The notes under the pieces are model-generated. The model had not been told where the DNA came from and ran no database searches. It saw only the letters and a list, made by a program, of their open reading frames with translations. Made by a program: the position numbers and the translations under genes. This document shows, one piece after another, positions 13,313 to 63,917 of a stretch of DNA of 64,000 bases. Source of the DNA: Actinomycetes bacterium (lineage in GTDB: Bacteria > Actinomycetota > JAHEXW01); NCBI GenBank assembly GCA_023251915.1, contig JAHEXW010000004.1, positions 26,733 to 90,732 on the forward strand, read 5' to 3'. Position 1 is the first letter of the stretch; each line of letters opens with the position of its first letter.

Positions 13313-14502
13313 GCCTGTTGGAAAGCTTCCGTCTGGCATTCGACGCTTTACGCGCCAACAAGCTGCGGGCCGGTCTAACAATGTTGGGCGTCATCATCGG
13401 TGTTATGGCAGTGATTCTCTTGGTCAGCATGGGCCAGGGCGTTACGGCGGAGATAACAGGCCAGGTCTCGGGCCTGGGTTCGAACCTGTTGTTCGTCATG
13501 CCCGGCCATTTCGATGTCAAAGATACATCAGGAACAGGTGGTATGCCGACCTACAAACTGCGTCCGGCCGATGTCGACATCATTAAACGGCGTTCCAGTC
13601 TGGCGGCTGGGGTCATCGGGATTATCGAAGCTCCGGTATCGATTGGCTTTAAGAATAGAACGACTAAAACGGTAGCCGTATGCACCAACGAAAGTTACCC
13701 CGATGTGATGACAAGGCCGATTGCTACCGGCCGTTTCCTGACTCAATCTCAAATCGCCGGAGCCCGTCATGTGACCGTGCTTGGCAAGACCGTGGTAGAT
13801 AATTTGTTCGGCAGTATCGATCCCATCGGCAAACAGATATCTATCGCCGGCCAGAAATACATCGTCGTCGGCACGATGTCCGAAAAAGGCATGATGATGG
13901 GCCAGGATTTTGACAACGGTGTTTATGTGCCGATCACTGTGGCCAATAACCTCGTCGGCCACGAACGGTTGAGTGAGATAGTCGTTAAGGCTAAGAGTGC
14001 CGACATGATTCCGGAAACCAAAAAAGAGATCGAGAACATCTTGCTCAAGAAGTATTCCAAGGACGATTTCACGGTCTTTAGCCAAGGCGAGACTTTGTCC
14101 ATAATGAATAATATTTTAGGTATCATGACCCTTATGTTGGCAGGCATAGCGAGCATATCCCTGCTGGTCGGCGGTATCGGCATCATGAACATAATGCTTG
14201 TGTCCGTGACCGAGCGCACCCGGGAGATAGGCATTCGCAAGGCAGTCGGCGCAAAAACGACGGATATTATGGTCCAGTTCATCATCGAAGCTGTTATGTT
14301 AAGTGCGCTCGGCGGCACCCTCGGCATTCTTTTAGGCGTCGGTGCGGCTTTGATAATTAATAACTGGCTGCCGGCTCAGATAAGCACCTGGTCGATTGTG
14401 TTAGCGTTTTGTTTCTCAGCTGGCGTCGGCGTCTTCTTCGGCGTTTATCCTGCCTGGAAAGCGGCCCGTCTTGACCCGATAGAGGCCTTGCGGTACGAGT
14501 GA
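13309..14502 (+). CDS. ABC transporter permease, MacB/FtsX family (periplasmic domain plus 4 TM)
   Basis: 397 aa. N-terminal TM, large extracytoplasmic domain, C-terminal FtsX-like TM bundle. ATGA overlap with the ATPase gene. Confidence 0.8.
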
Positions 14503-15176
14503 TGGAACCGGAGAGAATTCTCAAGCGCGACAAGAAATCAAAAAGGTCGTATACGGTTGGCGAAGAGATTGCCAACGCGATAACGCATGGCGTCGGTGTC
14601 GTCTTTTCGATTGTCGCGATGACGCTTTTGATCGTCACCGCTGTTTTGCACGGCGGAGACGGTTGGCGGTTGGCGGCGGCCGTCATTTACGGGTCGTCAC
14701 TGGTCATTGAGTACACGTTTTCGACCCTCTATCATAGTTTTCCCTGGTCAAAGATAAAGCACGTCTTTAAGATTCTGGATCACGCGGGTATCTATTTTCT
14801 TATCGCTGGCAGCTACACACCATTTATGCTGGTTACGCTGCGCGGCACGTCTATCGGCTTTTGGGTGTCCATTGGAATCTGGGCGTTTGCCGTCGCCGGC
14901 ATCTCAACCGAGGCCTTCTGGGTCTACCGGCCGAAATGGCTGGCGGCCGTTGTTTACGTAATCATGGGCTGGATCGCAGTCCTGGCAATCAAACCATTAA
15001 TTGCGCTAGCTCCGCCGCAAGCCGTTTGGTTGTTGATCGCGGGCGGTTTGTGTTACACGGTTGGCGCCGTAACCTATATTCCACGCCGCGTCCCCTATCT
15101 CCACGCCATCTGGCACCTCTTTGTCTTGGCCGGCAGCGTCCTGCACTTCCTTGCCGTCGTACTTTACGTTTTGTAA
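14499..15176 (+). CDS. hemolysin III / PAQR family membrane protein
   Basis: 7 TM; conserved HxxxH/LDHAGIYFLIAGSYTPF motif. Confidence 0.8.
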   Translation: MMEPERILKRDKKSKRSYTVGEEIANAITHGVGVVFSIVAMTLLIVTAVLHGGDGWRLAAAVIYGSSLVIEYTFSTLYHSFPWSKIKHVFKILDHAGIYFLIAGSYTPFMLVTLRGTSIGFWVSIGIWAFAVAGISTEAFWVYRPKWLAAVVYVIMGWIAVLAIKPLIALAPPQAVWLLIAGGLCYTVGAVTYIPRRVPYLHAIWHLFVLAGSVLHFLAVVLYVL

Positions 15177-15227
15177 AGGCTACGTAATAATTTAGTAACG
15201 TGACCGCATCGCGACGGGGGGTACAAC

Positions 15228-16163
15228 GTGTCTCTGCTGGAAGTAATCAATCTCACCAAGACATTCGATGCCAACACAGCCGTTGATGACGTAAGTTTCA
15301 CGGTTGAGGCGGGAGAGATATTTGGCCTGCTCGGCCCGAACGGCGCCGGTAAGTCGACTTTGATCGGGATGGTGTCGACCCTTCTCAAACCGACAAGGGG
15401 CGATATAGTCATCGACGGCCATAGTGTCGTCAAAGAGCCGATGGCAGTAAAGCGTTTGATTGGCGTTGTGCCGCAGGAGATTGCCCTATATCCAACCCTA
15501 ACCGCCCGAGAGAATCTTGATTTTTGGGGAAAAATGTACGGTTTGTCGCCTTCGGAGATTAAAGAGCGAGCTACCGACGTTTTGGAGATTGTCGGGCTGA
15601 CTGACCGTGCCGCTGAGAGAATCGACACCTACTCCGGCGGCATGAAACGCCGGATAAATATTGCCGCCGGTCTGCTGCATAGCCCCAAGGTGCTGTTTAT
15701 GGACGAACCGACCGTGGGCATCGATCCGCAAAGCCGGAACCACATTCTGGAAACGGTCAAACATCTCAACGAAGCCGGCCTGACCGTGATTTACACGAGC
15801 CACTACATGGAGGAAGTAGAATTCCTCTGCGATCGAATTGCGATTGTCGACAAAGGCAAGGTCATTGCCAGCGGTACCCAGAATGAACTGAGACTATTGG
15901 TTGGCAACAAAGACGTCATTCGAATCAAGGCGTTTGATATTCCGGAAGATGTCGCGGCTGATTTGGCGACGATCAAGGATGTTGATGGGGTGACCATAAA
16001 GGAGGGCGAGTTAGATATCCTCAGCCCGCGCGGGCGCGAGGTGCTGGCGTCCGTTATTAAGGCCTTAAATGACCGCCAGATAAAAATCGCGTCGGTTGAA
16101 GTCCAAGAGCCCGACCTGGAGAGTGTGTTTCTCCATTTAACGGGCCGAAGTCTTAGGGACTAG
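15228..16163 (+). CDS. ABC-2 type exporter ATP-binding protein
   Basis: GTG start. GPNGAGKST, YSGGMKRRINIAAGL, LFMDEPTVGID. Confidence 0.85.
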   Translation: MSLLEVINLTKTFDANTAVDDVSFTVEAGEIFGLLGPNGAGKSTLIGMVSTLLKPTRGDIVIDGHSVVKEPMAVKRLIGVVPQEIALYPTLTARENLDFWGKMYGLSPSEIKERATDVLEIVGLTDRAAERIDTYSGGMKRRINIAAGLLHSPKVLFMDEPTVGIDPQSRNHILETVKHLNEAGLTVIYTSHYMEEVEFLCDRIAIVDKGKVIASGTQNELRLLVGNKDVIRIKAFDIPEDVAADLATIKDVDGVTIKEGELDILSPRGREVLASVIKALNDRQIKIASVEVQEPDLESVFLHLTGRSLRD

Positions 16164-16169
16164 AAAGAT

Positions 16170-17378
16170 ATGCGACCTCTGGCAATCGCTCTTAGAGATA
16201 CTAAGATTATCGTACGTGATCGGCGGGCCCTCCTTATCCTGTTGGCAATGCCTCTAACAATCATCGCGATACTCGGCTTGGCACTGGGCAGTCTGTGGAG
16301 CGGAGAAGGTGCAATCAACAAGTTCGACGTCGCCGTCATAGACCACGACCACGGCAGTGCGTCAAAGGTATTCATCAACGACATTCTAAAGTCGCGGGAT
16401 ATGAAAAAAATCCTTTCCGTTACCGGTCCGACCGAAAAGCACGCGCGGGCATCCGTGGCCGACGGTGATCTGGCTGCCGCCATCATTATCCCGGCTGGTT
16501 TCTCCGCCGCGATCAATAAAGGCGAATCGGCGAAAATTGAGGTCATCGGCGATCCGGGACAACAGGTACGGGCGGGAGTCGTTCGGAGCGTCACCGAGTC
16601 TTTCGCGACTCACGCCAGCTCCGTCTTGATCAGCGTCAAAACATCAGTCGAAAGCCTTGTTGGGCAGGGTGCCGTCCCGCCGTCGCAGATTGTTGGTTTG
16701 TCTCAGACTCTGGCTGCTCAAGCCCAAACCGAATTGCATAAACCCCAGATCACGGTGGTGAAGAAGTCGACTGCTTCGGAAAAATCGGTGTCAGCCCTCC
16801 AGTATTACTCCGCGGGTATGGGAGTGATGTTCATCTTATTCGGTTCAATGTTTGGCGCGTTCTCCCTCTTGGATGAACGGCGTCAGATCACTCTGGCCAG
16901 AATGATGGCGGCGCCCGTCTCTCGTCTGGCCATCCTAAGCGGCAAGCTCGGCGGGGTATTCGTGATCGGCTCTCTGCAATTCGCTGTGATTGTCGCGTCA
17001 ACGCGCATACTATTCGGGGTTAACTGGGGCCCGTCGGTCGTGGGCGTGGTCGCGTTGGCGGCGGCAACGGTATTCGCGGCGACCGGAATGGCCATATTCA
17101 TCGCGTCGATTGCGAAAACGCAGGGGACGGCCGCGGGCCTATCACAGGGTTTGATTCAAGGGATGGCGGCTTTGGGCGGCTCGATGATACCGCTGTCGGT
17201 GATGCCTCCGGCGATGCAGAATTTCAGCAAGCTCACCATCAACTACTGGGCCATATCGGGTTTCAATGATCTTATGCTCGGCAAAGGCGCCGGCGCAATC
17301 ACAATTAATTGTCTGATTCTCATAGGCATCGCCATATTATTTATGGCTCTTGGCGTGGCGAGGTTCAGATATGAATAA
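16170..17378 (+). CDS. ABC-2 family permease
   Basis: N-terminal TM, extracytoplasmic loop, 5 C-terminal TM; the ABC-2 layout. Confidence 0.75.
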   Translation: MRPLAIALRDTKIIVRDRRALLILLAMPLTIIAILGLALGSLWSGEGAINKFDVAVIDHDHGSASKVFINDILKSRDMKKILSVTGPTEKHARASVADGDLAAAIIIPAGFSAAINKGESAKIEVIGDPGQQVRAGVVRSVTESFATHASSVLISVKTSVESLVGQGAVPPSQIVGLSQTLAAQAQTELHKPQITVVKKSTASEKSVSALQYYSAGMGVMFILFGSMFGAFSLLDERRQITLARMMAAPVSRLAILSGKLGGVFVIGSLQFAVIVASTRILFGVNWGPSVVGVVALAAATVFAATGMAIFIASIAKTQGTAAGLSQGLIQGMAALGGSMIPLSVMPPAMQNFSKLTINYWAISGFNDLMLGKGAGAITINCLILIGIAILFMALGVARFRYE

Positions 17379-18573
17379 GGTCTTTGCAATCGGCCGATTG
17401 ATGCTCCTAGAACAGGTTCGCAATCGCTCTTTCTGGTTACAGCTAATTTTTATCCCTCTCCTATTAACGCTGATCATGGGCATCGCGTTCGGAGGGACGA
17501 GCAGCGGCCCGAAACAAGTCAACCTGGCCGCCGCCGACAGCGACAAGACTGTTCTCTCTAGGATATTTTTAGCCCAGCTAAAGAAAGACAAGGTGTTCTC
17601 GGTCGCCACCGTGTCGGAGGCTGAGGCGCGCAGCCGGGTCAAGAAGGGAACGGTCGCAGGCGCGGTGATAATACCGGCAGGATATAGCGAGAGCGTTGTT
17701 TCCGGCGCCAAAGCCAGCGTGGAAGTCCTTAATACAGCCGGTGATAGCAGCGCCGTTCTTTTGTCTCAGGTAGTGACTGGGTTAACTGAGAGATACTCCG
17801 CCGACGCCTTCGCGGCGGCTAAGATAACAGCCGGACTGGCCGCGCATCGGTTTGGGATGACAACGGTCACCGAATGGGAAGAATCGTTTGAGGCGGCGGA
17901 TGCCAAGTGGAACCCACCCCCGGTCACAGTCGACGCCCATACCGTTACCCGGTCATTGGTCCGCGGCCGGAAAACACTTGCCGGCGGTTTTAATCAATCG
18001 TCTATGGGTTTTACGATTACTTTCATTATGTTCATGTTGGTCGGCGGTGCCGTCACGATTCTGGAAGACAGGCAAAAGGGAACATTGGGACGGCTGCTGA
18101 CGACGCCGACGGGTAAACCTACGTTTGTCGTTGGCAAGATGTTGGGAATGTTCGCGACCGCCGCCGTCCAGTCGACGATATTGATTGCGGCCGGGCGCTT
18201 CATCTTTAACGTCGATTGGGGCCGCGATCCACTGCCGTTGATTCTGCTGATGATTGCCTTTATCTTTAGCATCGCCTCGATGGGTATATTGATCGCTTCT
18301 CTGGCGCGGACAGCGTCACAGGCCAACGCCGCAACGCCTATTCTGTTGATTAGTATGGCCATGATTGGCGGCTGCTATTGGCCAATCGAAGTAACGCCGC
18401 CGTTCATGCAAACGGCGGCAAAATTCATACCGGCCGGATGGATGATGCGAGGACTAACTGACCTGATAACCAGAGGCTACGGCTGGGACGCGATCTGGCT
18501 TCCCGGGCTGGTCTTATTGGGCTTTGGCGTCGTCTTCCTGACCGCCGGGGTCGTTTTCTTGAAATATGAATAA
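17371..18573 (+). CDS. ABC-2 family permease (paralogue of the previous gene)
   Basis: Start at the ATG 9 nt after GAGG. Same architecture as the preceding permease. Confidence 0.7.
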   Translation: MNKVFAIGRLMLLEQVRNRSFWLQLIFIPLLLTLIMGIAFGGTSSGPKQVNLAAADSDKTVLSRIFLAQLKKDKVFSVATVSEAEARSRVKKGTVAGAVIIPAGYSESVVSGAKASVEVLNTAGDSSAVLLSQVVTGLTERYSADAFAAAKITAGLAAHRFGMTTVTEWEESFEAADAKWNPPPVTVDAHTVTRSLVRGRKTLAGGFNQSSMGFTITFIMFMLVGGAVTILEDRQKGTLGRLLTTPTGKPTFVVGKMLGMFATAAVQSTILIAAGRFIFNVDWGRDPLPLILLMIAFIFSIASMGILIASLARTASQANAATPILLISMAMIGGCYWPIEVTPPFMQTAAKFIPAGWMMRGLTDLITRGYGWDAIWLPGLVLLGFGVVFLTAGVVFLKYE

Positions 18574-18626
18574 GGTCCGAATCACTTCTTAACAAAGCCT
18601 GCTCGGAAGCGTGTCATAATCTTGTT

Positions 18627-19631
18627 ATGAACAAGGTGCCCCGCATGCCGTCCGTTGACTACTTTCGCGGTTTGGCCGTCGTATTAATGCTGCTCTACGA
18701 CTTCGTGCTGTTCTTCAGCAGCACACTCCCTCGCGTCTTACAGCACAGCCGACCAGATATGCTCTTGTTTGGCGACTTCATCGCACCATTCTTTCTGTTT
18801 ATCATGGGTCTGGCCTTACCTTTGTCCGTCAACAATAAGCGCGAGTCGGGTGTCTCTGAGAGGCAGATATTTTGGGGTGTCCTCCGGCGCGCGATCTTGC
18901 TACTCCTGATCGGTGTCCTGGTCGACGACTTGAGGTCGCCACTGCTTGGCGGAACAATTGGCTTGGGCGGGACCTATTACATAAAATGGGGCGTCCTGGA
19001 GGCGCTGGGCGTAAGCTACCTCGTGTCCTATATCATCATGCGCTTTGGGGCCAGGACAAGGTACGCGATAATCGCGGCAATTCTGGCTGCTTACGTTGGG
19101 CTAATGACCAACTCCTCGTTTGCCGCGTTCGTTCAGTCGCATTCGCACGGCAGCCCTTTGTCGGCTCTGACGTGGGCGAGCATTGCCGCTTTCGGAATGA
19201 TTGCCGGAGTGCGGCTTGTAAACAGTCGCGTGGACTACGAGAAGTATCTTTATCGGTTTGGCGCGACCCTCGTTATGATCGGCACCGTCCTCAGCCTCTT
19301 CGTTCCCGCTAGGAAAGAAATGGTCACTTCCAGCTACGCTCTGATTACCGCCGGCGGGTCGGCAATCGCCTTCATGTTCATGTATTACTTTATCGAGACG
19401 CGCGCTCTTCCTCGTGTCATAAAATGGCTAAGACCGCTATCTGACTTCGGCCGGGCCGCTTTGTTGGCATGGATTTTGCAGTATGCTGTCCCGGGCTATC
19501 TGATCTGGCGATTCCATACCTACGGCAAACTGGACGCATGGTTGGGGATACCGCTATCGGTGCTGATGATAGTCGTCGTGTGGCTGTTGATACGGGGGGC
19601 TGATCGCATCGGCTTCCGCCTGGCGGTCTGA
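18627..19631 (+). CDS. polytopic membrane protein, DUF1624 / HGSNAT-like acyltransferase family (tentative)
   Basis: N-terminal SVDYFRGLAVVLML motif typical of that family; about 9 TM. Confidence 0.4.
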   Translation: MNKVPRMPSVDYFRGLAVVLMLLYDFVLFFSSTLPRVLQHSRPDMLLFGDFIAPFFLFIMGLALPLSVNNKRESGVSERQIFWGVLRRAILLLLIGVLVDDLRSPLLGGTIGLGGTYYIKWGVLEALGVSYLVSYIIMRFGARTRYAIIAAILAAYVGLMTNSSFAAFVQSHSHGSPLSALTWASIAAFGMIAGVRLVNSRVDYEKYLYRFGATLVMIGTVLSLFVPARKEMVTSSYALITAGGSAIAFMFMYYFIETRALPRVIKWLRPLSDFGRAALLAWILQYAVPGYLIWRFHTYGKLDAWLGIPLSVLMIVVVWLLIRGADRIGFRLAV

Positions 19632-19637
19632 TGACGT

Positions 19638-20441
19638 CTACCTGAGGCCGGTAACCACCAGCGCGACGATCGTCCCTGCCAACAGTAGCCTATAGACGGC
19701 GAAAACCGCGAAACTGCTTTTCCGCAGATACTTGAGCAGGTATTTGATGCTCAGGTAGCCAACGATTGCGCTGACGCCGATTCCGATAAAGAAAGCCGCG
19801 TCGACTGTTCCGTGGACCAGCTTGCGTGCCTCGTATAGCGCCGCGCCAACTGTTATCGGCGCTGACAACAGGAACGAGAAACGCGCGGCGTCCTCGCGCT
19901 TGAAGTTTCTAAACAAGCTTGTGGTCATAGTTATCCCCGAACGCGACACGCCGGGAATGATCGCGATGGCCTGCGCCGTACCGACGAGGACCGCGTCCCA
20001 CACGCCTATGTGGTTTATGTCTTTGGTCTTCTTGCTCAGGCGGTCGGCAACATATAGCACAACGCCCATGACCGCTAGGGTGGCCGCAATCAGCAGCGGC
20101 GCCCGAAACGCCGCTTCCGCCTTCTTCTCCAACAGGGCGCCGAGCAGGCCGCCCGGAATCGACCCGATCAGCATGTACCAAGCGAATCGCTCATCAAAGG
20201 TAGTCGCTTTTCTCTTCGCCAGACTGGCAAACCAAGCCTTAACGATTCGCCACAGGTCATGCCAAAAAAATATAATGACGGCCAGCGCCGTACCGAAATG
20301 AAGAGCCGCGTCGAAGGCCAGGCCAGGATCAGGAAACTTGAGTAGCCAGGGCGTCAGGATAAGATGGGCCGAGGAACTGATAGGCAGAAATTCGCTCAAA
20401 CCCTGAACGATTCCCAAAATTATGGCGTGCCAAATGGTCAA
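19638..20441 (-). CDS. uppP: undecaprenyl-diphosphate phosphatase
   Basis: Signature GIVQGLSEFLPISSSAHLIL. Start trimmed to the TTG 5 nt after GGGGAG, giving MTIWHAIILGIVQGL. Confidence 0.85.
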   Translation of the reverse strand: MTIWHAIILGIVQGLSEFLPISSSAHLILTPWLLKFPDPGLAFDAALHFGTALAVIIFFWHDLWRIVKAWFASLAKRKATTFDERFAWYMLIGSIPGGLLGALLEKKAEAAFRAPLLIAATLAVMGVVLYVADRLSKKTKDINHIGVWDAVLVGTAQAIAIIPGVSRSGITMTTSLFRNFKREDAARFSFLLSAPITVGAALYEARKLVHGTVDAAFFIGIGVSAIVGYLSIKYLLKYLRKSSFAVFAVYRLLLAGTIVALVVTGLR

Positions 20442-20558
20442 AAGTGCTCCCCGTTTTGAAAGGATTGGACGATCGTCGCACAAAGCGACCGGTTAAGCGT
20501 AGCATTATGTGCAGCTTTCTTGCAGACTAGGTAGTATTAGAGTGCGAGGGGAGAGCGA

Positions 20559-21119
20559 ATGAACCATAGATGCTGCCGAAAGAAGATAAATCTGTTATTA
20601 CTAGCACTGGCTTGCGGCCTTGTCTTGGCTGGTTGCAAACCTGCGGCTAAGCCGGCAACCCCGACGGCCAAGCCTGTCGCACAAGCAAAACCGGTTACTG
20701 TAAATCCGATCAACAACGTGTCGACAAAACCTGGGCTGGTTATCTCAGATATTGAGGTCGAGGGAAACACAGATCCGGCGACGGGCAAGAACCTTAAGGA
20801 TCACCTGCAGTTGACGATTAATAATGGCACCATAGAGACGATGACCGGATTCGAGGTCTTCTATACGATGACTGACAAGAAAACCAAGAAAAGCGAGAGC
20901 TATTATCAGAAACTGACCGGGTTTCAGCTGGGTCCGGGGAGGGCGGCGACGCTCCATTTTGACGGCGGTAAAGGGCCGGGCCACTATCCCGAGAACAACA
21001 AATCCATATATCGCAAGTCAAGAAACGCCGTAGATTTCATGGTTGAAGTCAGCTGCGTGGGATTCCAGCCGGCGCCGGGTAAGGCGACTAAAACGGCGAG
21101 TTCTATGGACGGACTGTAG
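20559..21119 (+). CDS. hypothetical lipoprotein
   Basis: Signal peptide plus lipobox LVLAGC. Confidence 0.55.
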   Translation: MNHRCCRKKINLLLLALACGLVLAGCKPAAKPATPTAKPVAQAKPVTVNPINNVSTKPGLVISDIEVEGNTDPATGKNLKDHLQLTINNGTIETMTGFEVFYTMTDKKTKKSESYYQKLTGFQLGPGRAATLHFDGGKGPGHYPENNKSIYRKSRNAVDFMVEVSCVGFQPAPGKATKTASSMDGL

Positions 21120-21183
21120 AAAGTAAGGAGGAATAGCCATCAAAAAGTTTGAAAAAGAGGCCAGCCCCTTCGCCAAAGCCGGG

Positions 21184-22650
21184 TTGATTGTTGGGATATC
21201 CCTTTTTCTGGGTTGCCTCTTCGACTTTTTGATCTACGGCAAATTCCCCGGCTTGGCATTCCCGGTTTATGTCGCTCTAATCATCATGGGTCTTCTTGGT
21301 ATCACTTGGCTCTATGGAAGAACGACGACGAGCAGCGTTCTGTGGCTCCTGGTGCCCGTCTTCTTCTTTGCGGCGATGGTCTCGGTCCGCGCCAGCTTTC
21401 TGCTAACCGCCCTGAATCTGATAGCCGTTTTTCTGCTGCTGCTGCTGATCGCTCAAGTGGCCTTTAGCGAACCCCTGCAGACTTACCGCATCAAGGACTA
21501 TTTCAGGCTCGCGCTAGTGCCTTTCATGTATATCGTTTCATTATTCAAAACACTTGGAGACTTGGTCACGCTCCGCGGCGTCAAGGCAGACAAACGGACC
21601 ATGGCCCAGGTCGCGACGGGCATTGTCATAACGATTCCTCTCCTTGTTGTCTTTTCTCTGCTGTTCGCCTCGGCTGATTTAGTGTTCCAGAGGGCGCTGT
21701 CACAAATCGTGAGTTTCAGTATCGGGCCGGAGTTTGTTTTTCGAACGATCCTGATCTTCTTCGCTATGCTCGGTTTTACCGGAGCCTATTCATTTGTCTT
21801 TCGTAAGTCGGAGCCTGGTGTCGGCTTCCCGGGAGCGGTTCCGATCGCTAAAAAGACAGGCGGCTTCGGGCGTATCGAGGGCTCCATCCTCCTTGGATCA
21901 GTCAACGCGTTGTTTGGCGCTTTCATCTTGGTTCAGATCACATACCTGTTCGGGGGTCTTGGCAACATTTCCGGGCAAGGATTTACCTACGCCCAGTATG
22001 CGAGGAGAGGGTTTTTCGAGCTGGTCGCGGTCGCCGTGATAACGCTGGCGATGCTCCTGCTGATCGAGCGTTTCACGCCCAAGAACATGACTGGCCATTC
22101 CGGGTTGTTCAGAAGCTTGAGCACATTGCTCGTTGTCCAGGTCATGGTAATCATGGCCTCGTCGCTAACACGCATGTCGTTCTACGAGAACGCGTACGGT
22201 TTCACCGAACTGCGTCTCTACGTGCACGTGTTTATCTTCTTCATTGCGGCGGTTTATGTCGCTCTGCTGTACAAGATTCATATCGACAACCGTGAAGATA
22301 CGTTCACATTCAAAGTCTTTTTGTTGGTAGTTGCGTTCTTAGCCTTCATGAACGCGGTCAATCCGGACGCTTATATTGCCCGTCAAAACATGCAGAGATT
22401 TCGGCAAACCGGCAAGATCGACGCGGGTTATTTAGGCGGTTTATCTGACGACGCGTTGCCGGTGACGATATCCTTGCTGAAGAGCAAAGACGCGTCTGTC
22501 AGAGAAGAATATGCCAGTAGATTGCGCGACAGAGTTCGCGTGGAGCGAGGGCCGTTATTCTCTCGATGGCAATCGCTCAACTTATCACGCGTGAGAGCAA
22601 AAGAACTGATGCAGGAGAGCGATCAGGAAATGAAGAATTTGCTGCGCTGA
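21184..22650 (+). CDS. hypothetical polytopic membrane protein
   Basis: 488 aa, about 10 TM, no recognised family. The start is uncertain: a strong AAGGAGG at 21125-21131 is in frame but has no canonical start codon before the TTG at 21184. Confidence 0.5.
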   Translation: MIVGISLFLGCLFDFLIYGKFPGLAFPVYVALIIMGLLGITWLYGRTTTSSVLWLLVPVFFFAAMVSVRASFLLTALNLIAVFLLLLLIAQVAFSEPLQTYRIKDYFRLALVPFMYIVSLFKTLGDLVTLRGVKADKRTMAQVATGIVITIPLLVVFSLLFASADLVFQRALSQIVSFSIGPEFVFRTILIFFAMLGFTGAYSFVFRKSEPGVGFPGAVPIAKKTGGFGRIEGSILLGSVNALFGAFILVQITYLFGGLGNISGQGFTYAQYARRGFFELVAVAVITLAMLLLIERFTPKNMTGHSGLFRSLSTLLVVQVMVIMASSLTRMSFYENAYGFTELRLYVHVFIFFIAAVYVALLYKIHIDNREDTFTFKVFLLVVAFLAFMNAVNPDAYIARQNMQRFRQTGKIDAGYLGGLSDDALPVTISLLKSKDASVREEYASRLRDRVRVERGPLFSRWQSLNLSRVRAKELMQESDQEMKNLLR

Positions 22651-22694
22651 GGGTTTGTCACTCGATAGCAGTTCTGGGGACAGGCTAGCCCAAA

Positions 22695-23822
22695 CTAGTC
22701 TAACTTCTTGGTCTTGATTATTCTGTTTTGTTCGATCCAGACGATCCTGTTGTTGGCGGCGCAGTAGTCAAACGGATTGTCTCCCATTCCGGAATTGGCC
22801 TGTAATATTGCGATTCTGTTCGCCGTGCCCTGGCCGATAATGGGTAGTCTGTAGACTATCGCCTGAGGTTCTCGCTCGTCGAAGTAGAATATCAAGTTCT
22901 TTTTAGCATGGTCGAGATACAGTTTTCTGATGGAAACGGTATGCGACATATCGTGTAGGAATTCATCGATCCACAACGACGGTCGCTCAACGCTCCAAAG
23001 GCCCCTCTTTGTTTTTGTAGATATGTCGATGACGCTGATATTCAAAGAGGATAAACCTTGTTTCTCGTTAACGTAATAGACGTTATTACCATTCAAGACT
23101 GCAGTGATGAAATAGCCCCCGGAAGACTCAACGAGACTCGATGAGGTGTTTGTCTTTGTGTCCAATACAAGAAGGCTGTCTCCGACAGTCGTGTCCATGT
23201 TGCTCACCTTATAAACAAAATACCGTCCATCGTCGGACCACACCAGTCCGCCAATCCCCGCGCCCCTGATCAACTCGGTGTTCGCGGAGGAATCAACCTT
23301 GACTGTTTTAACAACTACGTAGTTGTTGTTATGTGCCTCGTACCACGCAATGTTATCGCTTTTCCATCCGCCCGGTGCTGCATCCGGTATCGTTGAAACG
23401 ATCTTCCCTGTCTTGACCTCAACAATGACTAGATCAAGTTTTGATGGGGCAGCAAATCCCGACTGCTGTTGTTCCACAACACGGGTAAACATCAGGTAAT
23501 TTCCTTTAGGAGAAACCGCAACTAGGTTTATGCCCCATGTTTTGATTCCGCGCGCTAAGAATTTCTTGCCACTAAGATTTGGTTTTTCGGAGTAGATGCG
23601 CGAATTCCAGGATTTTGGCCCATTGCCATAGATTTCAGCAGTATAAATCCGCTTGCCATCCGTCGCCCACGCGACGTTCCTGTATCCAGCAAATTTGGCG
23701 CTATCAGGGGGCTTCTTCTGTATGGTAGGTTTCTCGCCCCTAGCAGTGCATCCCGCAATTAAAATAATTGCCAGTAGTATGGCTAGAAAGGGGAAGGTCC
23801 TTCTGATATTCGACGATCTCAC
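22695..23822 (-). CDS. lipoprotein with beta-propeller (TolB/PD40-like) repeats; islet cargo
   Basis: Lipobox LIAGC. Repeated ...DG...Y.....G...I... blades. Local GC is clearly lower than the flanks. Confidence 0.5.
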   Translation of the reverse strand: MRSSNIRRTFPFLAILLAIILIAGCTARGEKPTIQKKPPDSAKFAGYRNVAWATDGKRIYTAEIYGNGPKSWNSRIYSEKPNLSGKKFLARGIKTWGINLVAVSPKGNYLMFTRVVEQQQSGFAAPSKLDLVIVEVKTGKIVSTIPDAAPGGWKSDNIAWYEAHNNNYVVVKTVKVDSSANTELIRGAGIGGLVWSDDGRYFVYKVSNMDTTVGDSLLVLDTKTNTSSSLVESSGGYFITAVLNGNNVYYVNEKQGLSSLNISVIDISTKTKRGLWSVERPSLWIDEFLHDMSHTVSIRKLYLDHAKKNLIFYFDEREPQAIVYRLPIIGQGTANRIAILQANSGMGDNPFDYCAANNRIVWIEQNRIIKTKKLD

Positions 23823-23855
23823 AGAGCAACTCCTCGCGCCGTTCGCGTTTGTAGA

Positions 23856-24509
23856 TCAACGCATATCTTTGGCGATTTTCAATAAGTCTTTCTCGTTCAG
23901 TTCGCCGGAGTCCGCAAAGAGCCTATATTCTATGCCCTTAACGACGAATGCGACTCTTGGTGAAACCCGATGCTTTTCATCTTCGAACTTCTGCGTTCCG
24001 CTTTTCATCACCATGTATTTCCGCACGCCGTCGTCCGCTACATCGTAGACTTGTCTTCTGCCGTCCGTGAACGACTCAGGTGATACTTCTGTAGGAAGAA
24101 TACTCTCGAATGTCTTGTTCTTGTCTCCGGAGGGGGTCGCGAAGAACTTCACTCCCGAGTCGAAAAGGATCCCAATGCCTACCCATTCTTTGGGTGCTTC
24201 CGCCTCTGTAAGACGAACGCGGACGATAGTGCCGAGCGCCTTGCTCGACGGGATGAGAATACCGTCCGCCGCCTTCTCTCGCGCGGTTACGAGCGGGATG
24301 CCAGGATTACTATCGTCATCGAGGATGTCGCCTACCAGAGGCAGCTCCCTACTTTCGACTGAATTGTTCTTCGAAGAGGCGTGAGCTGAATGTCTGGTTA
24401 GTAAAACGGGAGCCTTAGCGGAAGGCTTGATCGTGGCGAATGCTGCGGCAGACATCACGGCGATTGCGAGCAGCGCTAAGCCTCCGATTAACCAATTTGT
24501 TCTAGTCAT
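23856..24509 (-). CDS. hypothetical membrane-anchored exported protein; islet cargo
   Basis: N-terminal TM/signal, no family recognised, low GC. Confidence 0.45.
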   Translation of the reverse strand: MTRTNWLIGGLALLAIAVMSAAAFATIKPSAKAPVLLTRHSAHASSKNNSVESRELPLVGDILDDDSNPGIPLVTAREKAADGILIPSSKALGTIVRVRLTEAEAPKEWVGIGILFDSGVKFFATPSGDKNKTFESILPTEVSPESFTDGRRQVYDVADDGVRKYMVMKSGTQKFEDEKHRVSPRVAFVVKGIEYRLFADSGELNEKDLLKIAKDMR

Positions 24510-24534
24510 GAAAACACATCCTTTCTCTCCCTGG

Positions 24535-25371
24535 CTAGTGGATTTCGTAATTGTTGCAGTAGAGCCATTGCGCGTCGAACAGATGGTTTAGGAAGAATCC
24601 ATAAGGGGGATTTTGGTATTTGTCGTTGTTCTGCCACGGGCGCGGTGCATGTTTAGCTCCTGGCCAATAATAATATGTATCTGCGGCGTAGTATGAGCGG
24701 TACTGGGAGCGGTAGAATGTGCCATACCACGTGCCGGCGGGCGGATTGGGAGGAGGAGGAACGGCGGGTACCTCTGTGTCATCACGCTCGCATGCAAGGA
24801 TACTTCGCGAACTTACAATCCCGGTCCCTAAAAACGAGTAGACGGGTGTCCATATGTTGGTGTTAGGATCCCAGACGCTAACGTCGTATCGATCAGAAAG
24901 CGAGCCGCCTGGCCGGAATCTCGCGAGCAAGAACCCGTACCATCGTCCATTCACAAAGCCGATGTCTCGCACAACGATGTATCCCGGATGGTTCAAGCCA
25001 TCCATGAAGCCCTCATTATAGGTACCGTTTTTATATGAGACCACAAAGCCAATCGGATTCCTGAGCGGTATGCCGTTTATCCTTTTATTATACTCCCGCC
25101 CGACCTCAACGCAATCGCCATTGTCGCGCGCGGCTAGCGTCGAATTCACAAACTTGCTCGCATAGTTGGGAACTGGATTCCAGAAGTAGAGCTCGGTGAA
25201 CTGCCCATCGTTGAGCAGCCACACTCCATTAGGGTCTGAATCCCCGTAACCAGTATTAGCCATCAGAGTGCTTCCGTAATCTGAGGCGTACGCCTGGCCA
25301 GTAGAAAAAAGGAACATTGCTGTTACGAGTGACCAGCAAATAACGGTGCTTCTCCACCGTATGACCATCAT
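24535..25371 (-). CDS. hypothetical secreted protein (Tyr/Trp/Pro-rich C-terminus); islet cargo
   Basis: Signal peptide with AYA cleavage site. GGGAGGG RBS. AT-rich upstream region 25440-25560. Confidence 0.5.
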   Translation of the reverse strand: MMVIRWRSTVICWSLVTAMFLFSTGQAYASDYGSTLMANTGYGDSDPNGVWLLNDGQFTELYFWNPVPNYASKFVNSTLAARDNGDCVEVGREYNKRINGIPLRNPIGFVVSYKNGTYNEGFMDGLNHPGYIVVRDIGFVNGRWYGFLLARFRPGGSLSDRYDVSVWDPNTNIWTPVYSFLGTGIVSSRSILACERDDTEVPAVPPPPNPPAGTWYGTFYRSQYRSYYAADTYYYWPGAKHAPRPWQNNDKYQNPPYGFFLNHLFDAQWLYCNNYEIH

Positions 25372-25653
25372 CTTCCCTCCCTAGATTCCGCTTTGTCCAG
25401 ATGTCTTAACTCAAGACACACTGCTTGAGAACAGATAGGCGTTATATGCGATAGCGAGTGATGATATTAAAGTAATATTCATGCAAGGATAAGTCAAGGC
25501 ATAATAGTAAATATTATAAAGTCTCTTTATTAGCAGCATCATTGTTAATTATCTAAGTTATGTACATTTTTGAGACTTACCCCTTAACTGGACCTCACTC
25601 TCCAGTGAGAGGGAAATAAGGACAGCGGGGAATAATCGAAACTGACGGTCCCT

Positions 25654-26095
25654 GGTGGGCCCGTTCTCGGGCTTAGTCATCTGCATGTAGCGATCTACCA
25701 CGCACGAGATTAGCTGGCAAAGTGGGCCTCGTGTCAGTTCCTGCGATTTGGCTTGGCGGGCCGAATGCCAGGATGACCGTTCGCATGTTTCTGCCGCCCC
25801 AGGATGAACCGTTTACTGAAAGGTTTCCGCGACGGCTGGCCTGCCGGCCGTAGCGACCGAGAAGACGGAGGCCGTCAGGCTGGAGTTTGTCCGCGAAGGC
25901 TGGTGGGCCCGTTCTCGGACTTCGCCTCGCCTGTCAAAATGGGAGGTTGCTTCGTCACTTCATTCCTCGCAATGACCGAATGACGCGACCCTCGGTTGCT
26001 CACGACTCGAATATCGCTCCTTCGGACCGAGTTCGAGTCAAGCAAGGCAACATTTCTAGGAAATATCGGAAGATATTCCTCAGGGATGGTGGGCC
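25654..26095 (-). repeat. array of three degenerate copies of the tRNA-Ile 3' end (TGGTGGGCCC...), putative att-site remnants
   Basis: Plus-strand TGGTGGGCCCG at 25654 and 25901, and TGGTGGGCC at 26087. The first two share 22 nt. The copy at 26087 and the true tRNA end at 26286 are each followed by a hairpin (GGAAATATCggaaGATATTCC and AGAAATACC...GGTATTTCT). Confidence 0.5.
25941..25976 (-). repeat. GTCATTGCGAGG-family repeat copy (minus orientation)
   Basis: Plus strand gggaggttgcttcgtcacttcattcctcgcaatgac equals the rc of GTCATTGCGAGGaatgaaGTGACGAAGCAACCTCCC. Confidence 0.5.
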
Positions 26096-26143
26096 TCGGG
26101 ACTTTCAGGCACGATTCTTCCTGGATTTGAAAGCATCGTGAGG

Positions 26144-26185
26144 GCTTGCCGCGTCGGTCGCCTTGGGCGACCTCCTCGCAATGAC
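26144..26185 (-). repeat. GTCATTGCGAGG-family repeat copy with GGTCGCC-caa-GGCGACC hairpin (minus orientation)
   Basis: rc reads GTCATTGCGAGGaGGTCGCCcaaGGCGACCgaCGCGGCAAGC. It shares CGCGGCAAGC with the copy at 9788. Confidence 0.5.
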
Positions 26186-26285
26186 GCACTATTGCGCCCC
26201 CTGGCGCAAACCGTTCAAACAGACTCTCGAAACGCAAAATCCCTTAGAAATACCCACTGTGAAAGGTTGTGGTATTTCTAAGGGA

Positions 26286-26362
26286 TGGTGGGCCCGGACC
26301 GACTCGAACGGTCGACCTCACCCTTATCAGGGGTGCGCTCTAGCCAACTGAGCTACGGGCCC
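26286..26362 (-). tRNA. tRNA-Ile (anticodon GAT), CCA encoded
   Basis: rc is GGGCCCGTAGCTCAGTTGGCTAGAGCGCACCCCTGATAAGGGTGAGGTCGACCGTTCGAGTCGGTCCGGGCCCACCA. It forms a cloverleaf, with anticodon loop CT-GAT-AA and T-loop GTTCGAGTC. Confidence 0.9.
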
Positions 26363-26407
26363 AACGACAAAGTGAAATTATAGCACAGGAGTCCGGAAAC
26401 AGGCAGC

Positions 26408-27103
26408 CTATGACCGCATACGCAGCCGGCAGACCGTTCCCAGGGCTTTATAGATTTCGGTCCCAGATACCTTCGTTTCGCCCAGGCGGCGGTCGGCGTA
26501 ATGAATCGGCGTCTCGTCAATTTTCAGACCGGCTTGTTTGGCGCGATAGAGGATCTCCATCAGGAATGAGTAGCCGTCGGCCGTAAATGGCTGGCGGATT
26601 ATTTCTTCCAAAGCTTTCCGCCGGTAGCAGCGAAAACCCGAGGTGTTATCTCGTGTTCTTAGCCCGAGCAAGGTTGTTGCGACCATGTTGCCGCCGCTGC
26701 TCAATACCCGCCGCCACAAGCTGAAATCGACGCTGCCGTCGCCTACATACCGGGAACCGATCACGACATCGTTTCCGGCCTCCGCCATCTTCAATAACGC
26801 CGGAATGTGCGCCGGGTCATGCGACAGATCGGCGTCCATGGTTACAATCAGGTCAGCCTGGGGCAGCGCGGCGGCAAAGCCGGCCAGGTGTGCCGTGCCC
26901 AGGCCTTCCTTTCCGGCGCGATGCACAACGGTCATGTCACCGTCGGCGGCCGCCAGCCTGTCCGCGATGGCGCCCGTCCCGTCCGGCGAGTTGTCATCCA
27001 CGACGACAATCCGCATCGGCTGCTCAAGCCGCCGGATACCCTCTACCAGCAACGGGAGGTTCTCGAGTTCATTGTAGGTTGGAATGACAACAGCCGTCCT
27101 CAT
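26408..27103 (-). CDS. GT2 polyprenol-phosphate mannose synthase-like glycosyltransferase (DPM1/Ppm1 family)
   Basis: VVIPTYNELENL...VVVDDNSPDGT...DADLSHDP: GT2 DxD plus the DPM synthase pattern. Confidence 0.75.
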   Translation of the reverse strand: MRTAVVIPTYNELENLPLLVEGIRRLEQPMRIVVVDDNSPDGTGAIADRLAAADGDMTVVHRAGKEGLGTAHLAGFAAALPQADLIVTMDADLSHDPAHIPALLKMAEAGNDVVIGSRYVGDGSVDFSLWRRVLSSGGNMVATTLLGLRTRDNTSGFRCYRRKALEEIIRQPFTADGYSFLMEILYRAKQAGLKIDETPIHYADRRLGETKVSGTEIYKALGTVCRLRMRS

Positions 27104-28431
27104 GCCGTGACCTCTTTTGTCTGTCCGGCTCCGCGCGAGAAATTACCGAAATAGGCGAGAAACAGCAGCGTCGTCGCATAGTAGAAATAGTTGTTGTGCG
27201 TGAACCGAGAGACTATTACAAAAACAAATATCGTGAGGGCCGCGGCCGTCAGCATGACGGACATTGTATTGTCTTTGAACTGCCGCCAAGCCATCGCGAT
27301 TGACAGCGGCAGCAGAATCACCAGATATAGCAGGGACGACGGGAAGTAGGATTGGTCCGTTTTAACCAGGCCGGAAGCCAGCGCGGCGTGGCTGATGCCC
27401 CAACCGGCGATATGCCAGCTGGCTACGGCGGAACCGTAAGGATAGCGGACGATATCGTCGAAGAAGGCGTTAAGATTCCACAGCATCATCGGCAACCCGA
27501 AGACGGCGACGATGCCTCCAAGAACTAAGCATGTCTTCGCCAACGGGGTCCAAGAGCCATCGTTTTCGCGCCACATCCTGCGGCCTTGGCCATAGAGATA
27601 CAGCAGATAGAATGGCAAAAATATGATGACGAATTGCTTCGTTAGGAGGCCTATGCCGAGGAAGATGGCGGCTGGAATGTAGCGGCGTAGGGAGGTCAGA
27701 TAGACCGCCGCGACCAGGCACGCGGTAGCGACAATGTCGTTTGTGCCATAGACAAAATAGTATATTATCTCCGGATTTAGCGCGAAGACGATCACCAAGG
27801 CGCGCCTTAGCGTCGGGGCAGCGGGCAGTTTCCACAACACCAATATGGTAAACAAATAGAACAACAGGTACAGCATTCTCAAATCGAACCAACCCAACGA
27901 TGCCTTTACAAGCAAGAAGAAGGGTATAGGCAAAAGAAACGTCAGGGGCAGGTAGACGTAATGCTTTAGAGCGGGTGACTTATGATCGAACTTAAACAGC
28001 GGTGTCTTGTAGTAGTTTTCCACGTAAGGATTTTTGCCTCGTAGAATCATATTCATGGCCGCTTCTGTCTGAACGGCCGAATCAGTTATGCATGCAGCCG
28101 GCCCGATGGAATGGCGGAGCATGATCACGGTCACCATCGGCGTTACCGCGGCGACGATAATCAGCCCGGCCAGAATGCCCGTTTTCGCTCGATGTCCCCG
28201 TTTAGGGTCGCGGACAAAGAAATCAACAGCCACGTAGCCGGCGATACCCGCCAAAACGAGAAACGAACCGATATGCAGCCAGCGGTACGCGAGCGCATTT
28301 ACTGTTTGAATATACCGGCTGTACAGCAAGGAAATGGTAAGGATAAGGACAAGCAGGACGGTGTCCAAGCCTATCGGCAATTGAGATTCGCCAGTGGCAC
28401 CCATTGTTTGGTTTTCCGATTGTTCTGTCAT
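27100..28431 (-). CDS. GT-C fold integral-membrane glycosyltransferase (DUF2029-like mannosyltransferase, tentative)
   Basis: About 11 TM. ATGA overlap with the PPM synthase gene. Start trimmed to the ATG 5 nt after GAGGA (MTEQSEN...). Confidence 0.55.
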   Translation of the reverse strand: MTEQSENQTMGATGESQLPIGLDTVLLVLILTISLLYSRYIQTVNALAYRWLHIGSFLVLAGIAGYVAVDFFVRDPKRGHRAKTGILAGLIIVAAVTPMVTVIMLRHSIGPAACITDSAVQTEAAMNMILRGKNPYVENYYKTPLFKFDHKSPALKHYVYLPLTFLLPIPFFLLVKASLGWFDLRMLYLLFYLFTILVLWKLPAAPTLRRALVIVFALNPEIIYYFVYGTNDIVATACLVAAVYLTSLRRYIPAAIFLGIGLLTKQFVIIFLPFYLLYLYGQGRRMWRENDGSWTPLAKTCLVLGGIVAVFGLPMMLWNLNAFFDDIVRYPYGSAVASWHIAGWGISHAALASGLVKTDQSYFPSSLLYLVILLPLSIAMAWRQFKDNTMSVMLTAAALTIFVFVIVSRFTHNNYFYYATTLLFLAYFGNFSRGAGQTKEVTA

Positions 28432-47069: not shown

Positions 47070-47144
47070 GGGGGTGTAGCTCAGCGGGAGAGCGCTGCCT
47101 TTGCAAGGCAGATGTCGGGGGTTCGATTCCCCCCACCTCCACCA
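47070..47144 (+). tRNA. tRNA-Ala (anticodon TGC), CCA encoded
   Basis: GGGGGTGTAGCTCAG...CTTTGCAAG...GGTTCGATTCC...CACCTCCACCA. Carries the Ala-identity G3:U70 pair. TATAAT at 47054-47059 is 10 nt upstream. Confidence 0.9.
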
Positions 47145-57009: not shown

Positions 57010-57096
57010 GCCCCCGTGGCGGAATTGGTAGACGCGCTACGTTCAGGGCGTAGTAGCCGTAGGGCTGTGCTGGTTCAAATCCAGTCGGGGGCACCA
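57010..57096 (+). tRNA. tRNA-Leu (anticodon CAG), long variable arm, CCA encoded
   Basis: GCCCCCGTGGCGGAATTGGTAGACGCG CTACG-TTCAGGG-CGTAG ... GGTTCAAATCC ... CGGGGGCACCA. Confidence 0.9.
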
Positions 57097-59293: not shown

Positions 59294-59304
59294 AGACGCG
59301 CTAC

Positions 59305-59340
59305 GTCATTGCTAGGAGCGCAGTGACGAAGCAACCTCCC
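59305..59340 (+). repeat. GTCATTGCGAGG-family repeat copy (variant GTCATTGCTAGG) between larC and larB
   Basis: GTCATTGCTAGGAgcgcaGTGACGAAGCAACCTCCC. Confidence 0.5.
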
Positions 59341-59341
59341 C

Positions 59342-63841: not shown

Positions 63842-63917
63842 GCGCCCGTAGCTCAATGGATAGAGCGCCGGACTACGAATCCGTAGGTTGGAGGTTCGAC
63901 TCCTCTCGGGCGCACCA
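63842..63917 (+). tRNA. tRNA-Arg (anticodon ACG), CCA encoded
   Basis: GCGCCCGTAGCTCAATGGATAGAGCG CCGGA-CTACGAA-TCCGT ... GGTTCGACTCC ... CGGGCGCACCA. Confidence 0.85.

Follow-up and report, generated by a model that had tools for sequence, protein, structure and literature searches.

Short displaced copies of a tRNA-Ile 3' end, consistent with stacked recombination junctions, downstream of the intact gene in an uncultured bacterial lineage

Introduction

The Islander work on genomic islands at tRNA genes names three crossover subsites of tRNA-targeting tyrosine integrases within these genes, namely the anticodon loop, the T loop and the T/acceptor junction (PMC4383910). Integration regenerates the tRNA gene and moves its old end, together with the flank that followed it, beyond the insert; to be accepted by Islander, an island must hold an integrase and measure 2-200 kb (PMC4383910). 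Tandem arrays arise at such loci, as later events can enter at either core (PMC7192596), and the att core may be of considerable length, being 44 bp in the PYG1 case (PMC9897764). Cis-mobilizable elements (CIMEs) have lost the genes for integration and transfer and have kept attL and attR, so that decay may be followed by accretion (PMC5704250, referencing Pavlovic 2004 and Bellanger 2011).

In this work, we analysed a stretch of DNA of 64,000 nucleotides (hereafter, the window) from an uncultured lineage, with Chloroflexota providing its best protein matches. Within it, an intact tRNA-Ile gene is followed downstream by three or four short copies of its own end (9-11 nt), all co-oriented with the gene and separated by the non-coding units U3, U2 and U1 (Table 1). 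The array resembles the attR sites described for Islander and TIGER (PMC4383910, PMC7192596, PMC9897764) in that it consists of 3' tRNA pieces, located downstream and co-oriented, with a boundary at a crossover subsite; further likenesses are a tRNA apparently regenerated with a new flank, serial cores, and a relative with an uninterrupted junction of tRNA and flank. Unlike those islands, which span 2-200 kb, the present locus has neither an integrase between the tRNA and the fragments nor cargo genes, its units measure 175-237 bp, roughly one tenth of the 2-kb minimum, and its core is 9-11 nt long, compared with the tens of nt that are typical; the Islander filters would thus discard every unit described here.

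With the CIMEs and the site-specific accretion of the ICESt1/ICESt3 family, the locus shares cores that flank each gene-less unit and a tandem stacking of units, differing from them in that one unit type is the terminator region of the host tRNA itself. The described CIMEs are larger than these units and still carry genes. Single tRNA pseudogenes or decayed tandem tRNA genes would likewise present a tRNA 3' end including its CCA, but the fragments correspond to the last 9-11 nt only, with no detectable homology to the T-arm or the tRNA body. The units recall MITE and REP repeats, being short, non-coding and intergenic, and U2 and U3 carry copies of an interspersed repeat; in contrast to such repeats, they have no terminal inverted repeats, occur in the window at this tRNA only, and are flanked by a tRNA end, not by a generic target duplication.

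Results

The tRNA-Ile gene, its promoter box and its terminator

The repeated core of the array is the last 11 nt of the tRNA-Ile gene, CGGGCCCACCA, which comprises the 7-nt acceptor 3' strand, the discriminator A and the encoded CCA. The promoter-like box upstream of the gene, in the form TGTG(C/T)TATAAT, stands at an equal distance from the tRNA in five related contigs (L125, L127, L128, L141 and L142); it was left unscored by our promoter consensus scan because it has no accompanying -35 box. In the same way, the hairpin that follows the gene (module H) was missed by a simple terminator scan on account of its 16-nt loop. This hairpin begins on the terminal A of the CCA and is directly followed by UUUUG, and it combines the features of an intrinsic terminator, namely a stable stem-loop, a U-run and a conserved structure. 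When the 16-bp stem was compared over L127, L128, U3 and U2, 6 of its 16 pairs were found to be compensatory and 93.8% of the cells to be paired, and this compensatory pairing in four sequences identifies module H as the conserved terminator of tRNA-Ile.

An initial annotation of this DNA had described perfect hairpins after both the tRNA end and the copy at 26087. The one at the tRNA is indeed perfect; its counterpart at 26087 (module H') is not, since it has suffered a 12-nt loop deletion, 4 of its 16 pairs are broken and the T-run is missing.

Table 1. Features of the tRNA-Ile locus, listed along the tRNA strand (window coordinates)
Feature	Position	Strand	Sequence or length	Basis and remarks
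Extended -10 box, promoter-like	26377..26387	(-)	TGTGCTATAAT	About 15 nt upstream of tRNA-Ile; by sequence reading
tRNA-Ile(GAT) with encoded CCA	26286..26362	(-)		ARAGORN; Rfam RF00005, 68.5 bits, match 26289-26362
Module H, tRNA-Ile terminator	26239..26286	(-)	Perfect 16-bp hairpin	Inverted repeat; fold z = -3.8
Unit U3	26098..26285	(-)	188 nt	Terminator hairpin, degenerate interspersed repeat copy (26140-26187) and right end ...GAAAGTCCC
Fragment 3	26087..26097	(-)	GAGGCCCACCA	9 nt match the tRNA end, then 13 nt of common 3' flank
Module H', decayed paralogue of the terminator hairpin	26052..26087	(-)		Alignment and pair counts; fold z = -2.7
Unit U2	25912..26086	(-)	175 nt	H', interspersed repeat copy (25941-25977) and right end GCGAAGTCCGAGAA
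Fragment 2 with left motif	25900..25922 (core 25901-25911)	(-)	AAGTCCGAGAA + CGGGCCCACCA + G	One arm of the 23-nt direct repeat
Module G	25834..25900	(-)	67 nt	Directly after an intact, identical tRNA-Ile in L125
Unit U1	25664..25900	(-)	237 nt, GC 0.60	Module G and unrelated sequence, with left motif CTAAGCCCGAGAA at the end
Short fragment, probable older short type	25722..25731	(-)	CGAGGCCCAC	10-mer of fragment 3 minus the final CA
Fragment 1 with left motif	25652..25674 (core 25653-25663)	(-)	AAGCCCGAGAA + CGGGCCCACCA + G	Outermost junction

Displaced copies of the tRNA-Ile 3' end

Along the tRNA strand, the locus reads tRNA, U3, fragment 3, U2, fragment 2, U1 (with the short fragment inside it), fragment 1 and the AT-rich promoter region of a gene for a 278-aa protein. 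The exact 11-mer CGGGCCCACCA has three copies in the 64 kb (25653-25663, 25901-25911 and the tRNA end itself), all on the tRNA strand, and TGGTGGGCCC is exact at 25653, 25901 and 26286. The motif array proposed in the initial annotation, with copies at 25654, 25901, 26087 and 26286, is therefore real, with two corrections: the first copy starts at 25653, and the copy at 26087 (TGGTGGGCCT) carries one mismatch, the stretch that it has in common with the tRNA end being only GGCCCACCA. When the 3' flank is counted as well, fragment 3 and the true tRNA end agree at 20/22 nt. A further copy assigned to 25716 also exists (GTGGGCCTCG), its true position being 25722-25731, and the 10-mer CGAGGCCCAC has two copies in the window, both of them inside the array (fragment 3 and this short fragment).

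The longer identity that had been reported for the two distal copies was borne out: fragments 1 and 2 have 22/23 nt in common, AAG[Y]CCGAGAACGGGCCCACCAG (= CTGGTGGGCCCGTTCTCGG[G/A]CTT), and the 18-mer CGAGAACGGGCCCACCAG at the core of this direct repeat gives 2 matches against 0.05 expected. Within this stretch, the segment GCCCG-AGAA-CGGGC is able to form a 5-bp hairpin ahead of CCACCA. A search of the whole window for the 10-mer with up to one mismatch gave 6 matches against 4.4 expected, that is, no enrichment in number; what makes the array significant is that the copies are exact, clustered and on one strand, and that longer contexts are common to them.

The boundary of the copies is sharp. 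Fragments 1 and 2 and the acceptor 3' strand start on the same base, at the T-stem/acceptor junction, and no similarity to the tRNA body was detected in the 40-70 nt upstream of the fragments (anchored p = 0.10, 0.83 and 0.92). Regarding the sequences on either side of the cores, the right-hand one is common to the tRNA end and fragment 3, and the left-hand one to fragments 3, 2 and 1; by analogy with tandem att arrays, the former would fit a P' side and the latter a P side. The window has three more tRNA genes, and a search for displaced ends of this kind found none for them.

Units between the cores

Between units U3 and U2 there is collinear homology (global alignment against shuffled sequences, z = 5.3), with a divergence to roughly 50-60% identity overall. 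Each opens with a hairpin right behind the CCA and closes with a right end resembling that of the other unit (GAAAGTCCC and GCGAAGTCCGAGAA), and each holds one copy of an interspersed repeat of the genome, GTCATTGCGAGGA...GACGAAGCAACCTCC, a sequence for which a literature search returned unrelated primer matches only. Apart from the common end motif AAGYCCGAGAA, U1 displays no significant similarity to either of them. The spacings in the array are 199, 186 and about 181 nt, and Tandem Repeats Finder reported nothing over the array.

The orthologous locus in related contigs

The orthologous tRNA-Ile locus was read in contigs from three relatives, L125, L127 and L128. In all three, a DUF4153 gene is located immediately upstream of tRNA-Ile; in the window, the DUF4153 gene sits 3.7 kb from tRNA-Ile and is convergent with it, the protein being 69% identical to that of L127 and 67% identical to that of L128. 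In L127 and L128, the sequence after tRNA-Ile is module H, a hairpin with homology to the beginning of U3. L125, the single metagenome match to the 3' half of tRNA-Ile, has a tRNA sequence identical to that of the window followed by module G; here, BLAST aligned positions 493-571 of L125 with window positions 25911-25834 (86% identity over 79 nt). Between L125 and the window, the G flank alone is 84% identical, compared with 64% for the 5' flank and 72% (DNA) for the neighbouring gene, and this higher identity would fit a module that is more recently shared or constrained.

Two flank modules are thus found beside an intact tRNA-Ile in relatives and beside displaced fragments in the window. Module G has the intact tRNA on its left in L125, and AAGTCCGAGAA plus the core in the window; module H has the intact tRNA-Ile on its left in the window, L127 and L128, and GAAAGTCCCGA plus the core at its second occurrence in the window. 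The uninterrupted state of tRNA and G serves as the reference and was found in one relative only, L125; the corresponding junction in the present genome would read GGTCCGGGCCCACCAGCCTTCGCGG. In the window, the tRNA body and the G flank stand further apart than in L125, by 374 nt and an 11-nt repeat; with three comparator loci, this difference would fit an insertion in the window as well as a deletion in L125. The same array of fragments was sought in the relatives, as the initial annotation had suggested, and it is absent from the orthologous locus in L125, L127 and L128, with no extra tRNA-end copy over the 1.9-5.9 kb downstream of the gene.

The surroundings of tRNA-Ile are rearranged and variable between relatives. 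In the closest relatives (runs SRR30681717 and SRR30681611), whose GT2 is 81% identical, the order from GT2 to tRNA-Ile is kept and the contigs stop inside the tRNA. Among species-representative genomes, the best GT2 match was at 55%, in MAGs of Chloroflexota/Anaerolineae, and none had tRNA-Ile downstream. On the other side of the array, the cluster of genes for 278-, 217- and 375-aa proteins has a lower GC content and no Pfam family, and the 71% orthologue of the 278-aa gene, in contig L122, lies in a different context with no tRNA.

Assembly support

The array is no artefact of assembly. From run SRR14366756, a second assembler produced a Logan contig that is 100% identical to the window over 14163-26300, and in an ENA contig the flanking genes lie 1040 nt apart, as they do in the window. 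Logan contigs break inside tRNA-Ile, indicating some graph ambiguity at the gene; the branching lies 15 nt ahead of the tRNA end. The cores of 9-11 nt are far below the assembly k-mer and would hence be unable to join assembly paths. Accordingly, a concatenation by the assembler of alternative 3' flanks from co-existing strains is close to negligible in probability: the metagenomic origin of the data and the breaks inside the tRNA would allow for it, but the segment from 25372 to 26300 lies within the one identical Logan contig, the ENA assembly has equal spacing, and the cores are too short to join paths. The repeats therefore survive in a second assembly, a check on which their reality had been made to depend.

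Other feature classes

Several other classes of feature were considered for the fragments and the units and, tandem repeats apart, were rejected. The extra copies had been said not to be tRNA genes, with which ARAGORN and Rfam agree: both (Rfam with E up to 10) recover the real tRNA-Ile alone, neither detects a pseudogene, and no homology to the tRNA body was detected upstream. Known RNA families are likewise missing, as Rfam is empty besides tRNA-Ile across 24000-28000 (E up to 10), and the fragment-bearing segments fold no better than shuffled sequences (z = -0.5 to -1.4), which speaks against structured small RNAs. Promoter-like sites were absent from the array in the consensus scan. Protein-coding content was dismissed, given that the ORFs of the array are short, with read-through peptides typical of the interspersed repeat; none inside the array is credible, and the only one scanned (120 aa) had no Pfam match. 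Neither a MITE nor a transposon with inverted ends is indicated, the unit ends having no terminal inverted repeats and the unit-end motif being confined to the array, and as regards a tandem repeat, Tandem Repeats Finder was negative, U3 and U2 are homologous and U1 is unrelated to them.

We also searched for the genes and donors that an integrated element might have left. Across the window, the 30 ORFs scanned included no integrase, transposase or other mobile-element gene, their domains being of housekeeping type or unknown. An attP source was sought by pattern scan in viral contigs, which yielded zero or only chance matches with no tRNA context, and by blastn in phages and plasmids, which gave no match.

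Discussion

The array is real, non-random and of a known kind, consisting of displaced tRNA-gene ends, and on present evidence it does not represent a new type of system. Most likely it is a genome scar of an ordinary type that is unusually small, has no cargo and is duplicated in part; specifically, we give somewhat better than an even chance to its being a stack of recombination junctions retained at the 3' end of tRNA-Ile. Stacked attR-like sites left by serial integration and excision had been one of two readings offered by the initial annotation, and the attR part of it is the best supported, since the module downstream of each fragment adjoins an intact tRNA-Ile in some relative and the boundary falls at a crossover subsite. 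Furthermore, modules H and G are exchanged at one fixed nucleotide position, which is the signature of site-specific recombination, and the fragments are 3'-terminal, co-oriented and downstream of the tRNA, which is the configuration that integration produces. The excision part of the proposal does not stand: precise excision leaves no scar, so the fragments are better regarded as retained junctions than as excision scars. The absence of an integrase and of cargo also departs from that proposal, as does the mutual homology of U3 and U2, owing to which the two may be a duplication of the terminator region instead of two independent integrations. There is no need to suppose that U3 and U2 were ever mobile, given that L127 and L128, which have no distal fragment, possess module H as their native terminator.

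Under the reading as retained junctions, repeated recombination at one fixed point, the T-stem/acceptor junction, would account for the common core CGGGCCCACCA. In each event, the tRNA would be regenerated with a new 3' flank, and the old tRNA end with its then flank would be displaced downstream as an attR-type junction, laid out as the right end of the element (AAGYCCGAGAA), the core and the former flank. The agent would most likely be a tRNA-targeting tyrosine integrase encoded beyond the window, and the pieces of 175-237 bp between the cores would be gene-less remnants, comparable to decayed, att-only cis-mobilizable elements. U3 and U2 may be copies of one unit bearing the terminator of the tRNA itself, their doubling having probably occurred by unequal exchange between the flanking cores, either integrase-mediated or through replication slippage; the junction of a circular unit would read AAGTCCGAGAA-CGGGCCCACCA-TCCCTTAG. 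What the sequences show directly are the fragments with their sharp boundary and the two flank modules, both also present beside intact tRNA-Ile in relatives; that an integrase was involved, in which order the events took place and that nothing but the working terminator has a function today are inferences.

A more active version of these events is improbable in our judgement, namely that the units of 175-240 bp are gene-less, att-only miniature integrative elements still moved in trans by a tRNA-Ile-specific integrase encoded elsewhere or, more remotely still, that the hairpin and CCACCA junctions are themselves used as acceptor-end mimics. A unit would then comprise a replacement tRNA terminator (P' side) and the right end AAGYCCGAGAA beside the 11-nt core, and its amplification and swapping at the tRNA end would make it an integrase-dependent analogue of MITEs. 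Should the units still be mobile, they would represent an unusually small form of integrase-dependent element.

The main competitor of the retained junctions, clearly less probable than they are and nonetheless to be taken seriously, dispenses with mobile elements altogether: local replication slippage or unequal exchange at short direct repeats, independent of any recombinase, would have doubled the 3' end of the tRNA together with the DNA that follows it and, in relatives, deleted it, the copies diverging afterwards. The collinear homology of U3 and U2 (z = 5.3) in a layout of repeat, unit, repeat, unit and repeat is what such duplication would leave, the spacings of 199, 186 and about 181 nt are alike, module H is a native terminator in relatives, the window is free of integrase genes, and the state of tRNA and G in L125 could be obtained by deletion between two 11-nt repeats. 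Local duplication does not account, however, for the source of the first displaced tRNA end, nor for the recurrence of AAGYCCGAGAA plus core at the end of U1, a unit without relationship to the other two. It also leaves unexplained why H and G, two non-homologous modules, each stand, in different lineages, beside the intact tRNA-Ile of the orthologous locus, and why cores of 11-23 nt are near intact in units diverged to roughly 50-60% identity; Tandem Repeats Finder, moreover, detected no tandem array. Quite unlikely, in turn, is an origin in tandem full-length tRNA-Ile genes with their own flanks, whose 5' parts would have decayed or been deleted. Each fragment does have the full acceptor 3' strand and ACCA, and the flank behind it is one that elsewhere belongs to an intact tRNA-Ile, and homologous recombination of tandem copies could give the single-copy states of the relatives. 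Against this, similarity to the tRNA body is undetectable upstream (p = 0.10, 0.83 and 0.92), ARAGORN and Rfam (E up to 10) find no pseudogene, the non-tRNA motif AAGYCCGAGAA occupies the place where a T-arm would stand, and the units of 175-237 nt, although long enough for a 77-nt gene, contain none that can be recognised.

A function for the fragments themselves, as acceptor-end mimics (5-bp hairpin plus CCACCA) transcribed together with the tRNA or downstream of it that act as processing signals, as decoys for enzymes or toxins, or as small RNAs, appears slightly less probable again than decayed tandem genes. The other reading of the initial annotation, a family of transcripts mimicking the tRNA end, belongs here and was not upheld, as there is no Rfam match, significant fold or promoter-like site, nor copies in the three relatives. 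The core is intact within units that are diverged or unrelated, a short helix that ends in a CCACCA tail is possible in fragments 1 and 2, and the core-adjacent region of fragment 3 agrees at 20/22 nt, compared with roughly 50-60% for the whole unit, all of which would fit such a function. But the folds equal those of shuffled sequences (z = -0.5 to -1.4), the fragments belong to no Rfam family and are absent at the orthologous locus in three relatives, the array has no promoter-like site, and a strong, conserved terminator separates the tRNA from the fragments.

Signatures such as this one are discarded by island finders by design, having no integrase and measuring <2 kb, and the number of mini-stacks may consequently be underestimated. 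Annotation, too, can be misled by them, with spurious ORFs running over the units and confusion about where the tRNA truly ends. In the present lineage, the array marks the tRNA-Ile gene as a recombination hot spot, and the core CGGGCCCACCA, the candidate element-side motif AAGYCCGAGAA and the sequence AAGYCCGAGAACGGGCCCACCA provide handles for finding the integrase or the element in the full genome. The locus further shows that a tRNA terminator is exchangeable as a module at the CCA end; in L127, the terminator hairpin finishes right at the stop codon of the convergent gene.

Rearrangement of the tRNA-Ile locus

Comparison of gene order with related contigs indicates that the tRNA-Ile locus has undergone repeated rearrangement in this lineage. 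A DUF4153 gene lies directly 5' of the orthologous tRNA-Ile in three relatives (L125, L127 and L128); in the window, this gene is found 3.7 kb from the tRNA, beyond the array of tRNA 3'-end copies on the opposite side and in convergent orientation, and its place is taken by a GT2 (polyprenol-phosphate mannosyltransferase-like) gene, an arrangement shared with two relatives whose GT2 is 81% identical (L141 and L142). Immediately beyond the outermost fragment, a cluster of three genes possibly represents variable, island-like cargo: its GC content is lower than that of the window (0.44-0.50 vs 0.55), no Pfam family was assigned other than a PD40 match below threshold, a 71% orthologous pair occurs in a different context in a relative (L122), and two paralogous clusters of this type are present on a single contig of GCA_902810715.1 (L124).

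Downstream of the tRNA-Ile in L125, where module G (the 67-nt flank of fragment 2 in the window) directly follows the intact, identical tRNA, the next genes would encode, if our by-eye reading of the sequence is correct, a putative AbrB/SpoVT-type antitoxin and a PIN-domain toxin. A pair of this kind would match the usual cargo of mobile islands, a hint that module G may form the left end of a larger L125 element.

In the k=31 Logan assembly of run SRR14366756, the tRNA-Ile is interrupted by the ends of two contigs (L082 and L001), the 3' break lying 15 nt before the tRNA end. This position implies that the sample contains another sequence having GGTCCGGGCCCACCA and 15 nt of the terminator hairpin directly 3' of the tRNA, and diverging just beyond, which could correspond to a strain variant or to an additional junction. 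Regarding an RNA-mediated (reverse-transcribed) origin, the CCA in the array fragments does not point to it, since the 3' CCA is gene-encoded in all four tRNA genes of the window.

Coordinates of features at the tRNA-Ile locus and of the repeats and other tRNA genes
Feature	Sequence	Position	Strand
Three-gene cluster (375 + 217 + 278 aa)	window	22695-25371	minus
DUF4153 gene	window	21184-22650	
DUF4153 gene	L125	1-375	
DUF4153 gene	L127	6001-7533	
DUF4153 gene	L128	903-2357	
Putative antitoxin and toxin genes	L125	880-1600	
Logan contig ends (L082, L001) within tRNA-Ile	window	26300/26301; 26333/26334	
tRNA genes with encoded CCA	window	26286-26362; 47070-47144; 57010-57096; 63842-63917	
Interspersed repeat, outside array	window	9786-9830; 59303-59341; 60127-60185	
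Interspersed repeat, within array	window	25941-25977; 26140-26187	
GGCACCCACCCCTTAATCCCCTCCCCTCAAGGG... repeat	L125	775-835	
GGCACCCACCCCTTAATCCCCTCCCCTCAAGGG... repeat	L129	4625-4680	

Short intergenic repeats

Also interspersed in intergenic DNA of the window is a short repeat in which a variable hairpin links GTCATTGCGAGGA to GACGAAGCAACCTCC; a variant form reads GCGGCAAGC(Y)C. Outside the array, the repeat separates genes of a larB/larC/larE-like operon and follows a peptidase gene. The 12-nt core of the repeat, GTCATTGCGAGG, was absent from all 140 other loci compared, and a literature search for the repeat returned unrelated primer matches only. A second short repeat (GGCACCCACCCCTTAATCCCCTCCCCTCAAGGG...) is common to the related contigs L125 and L129, in opposite orientations, being located downstream of the tRNA-Ile and of DUF4153, respectively.
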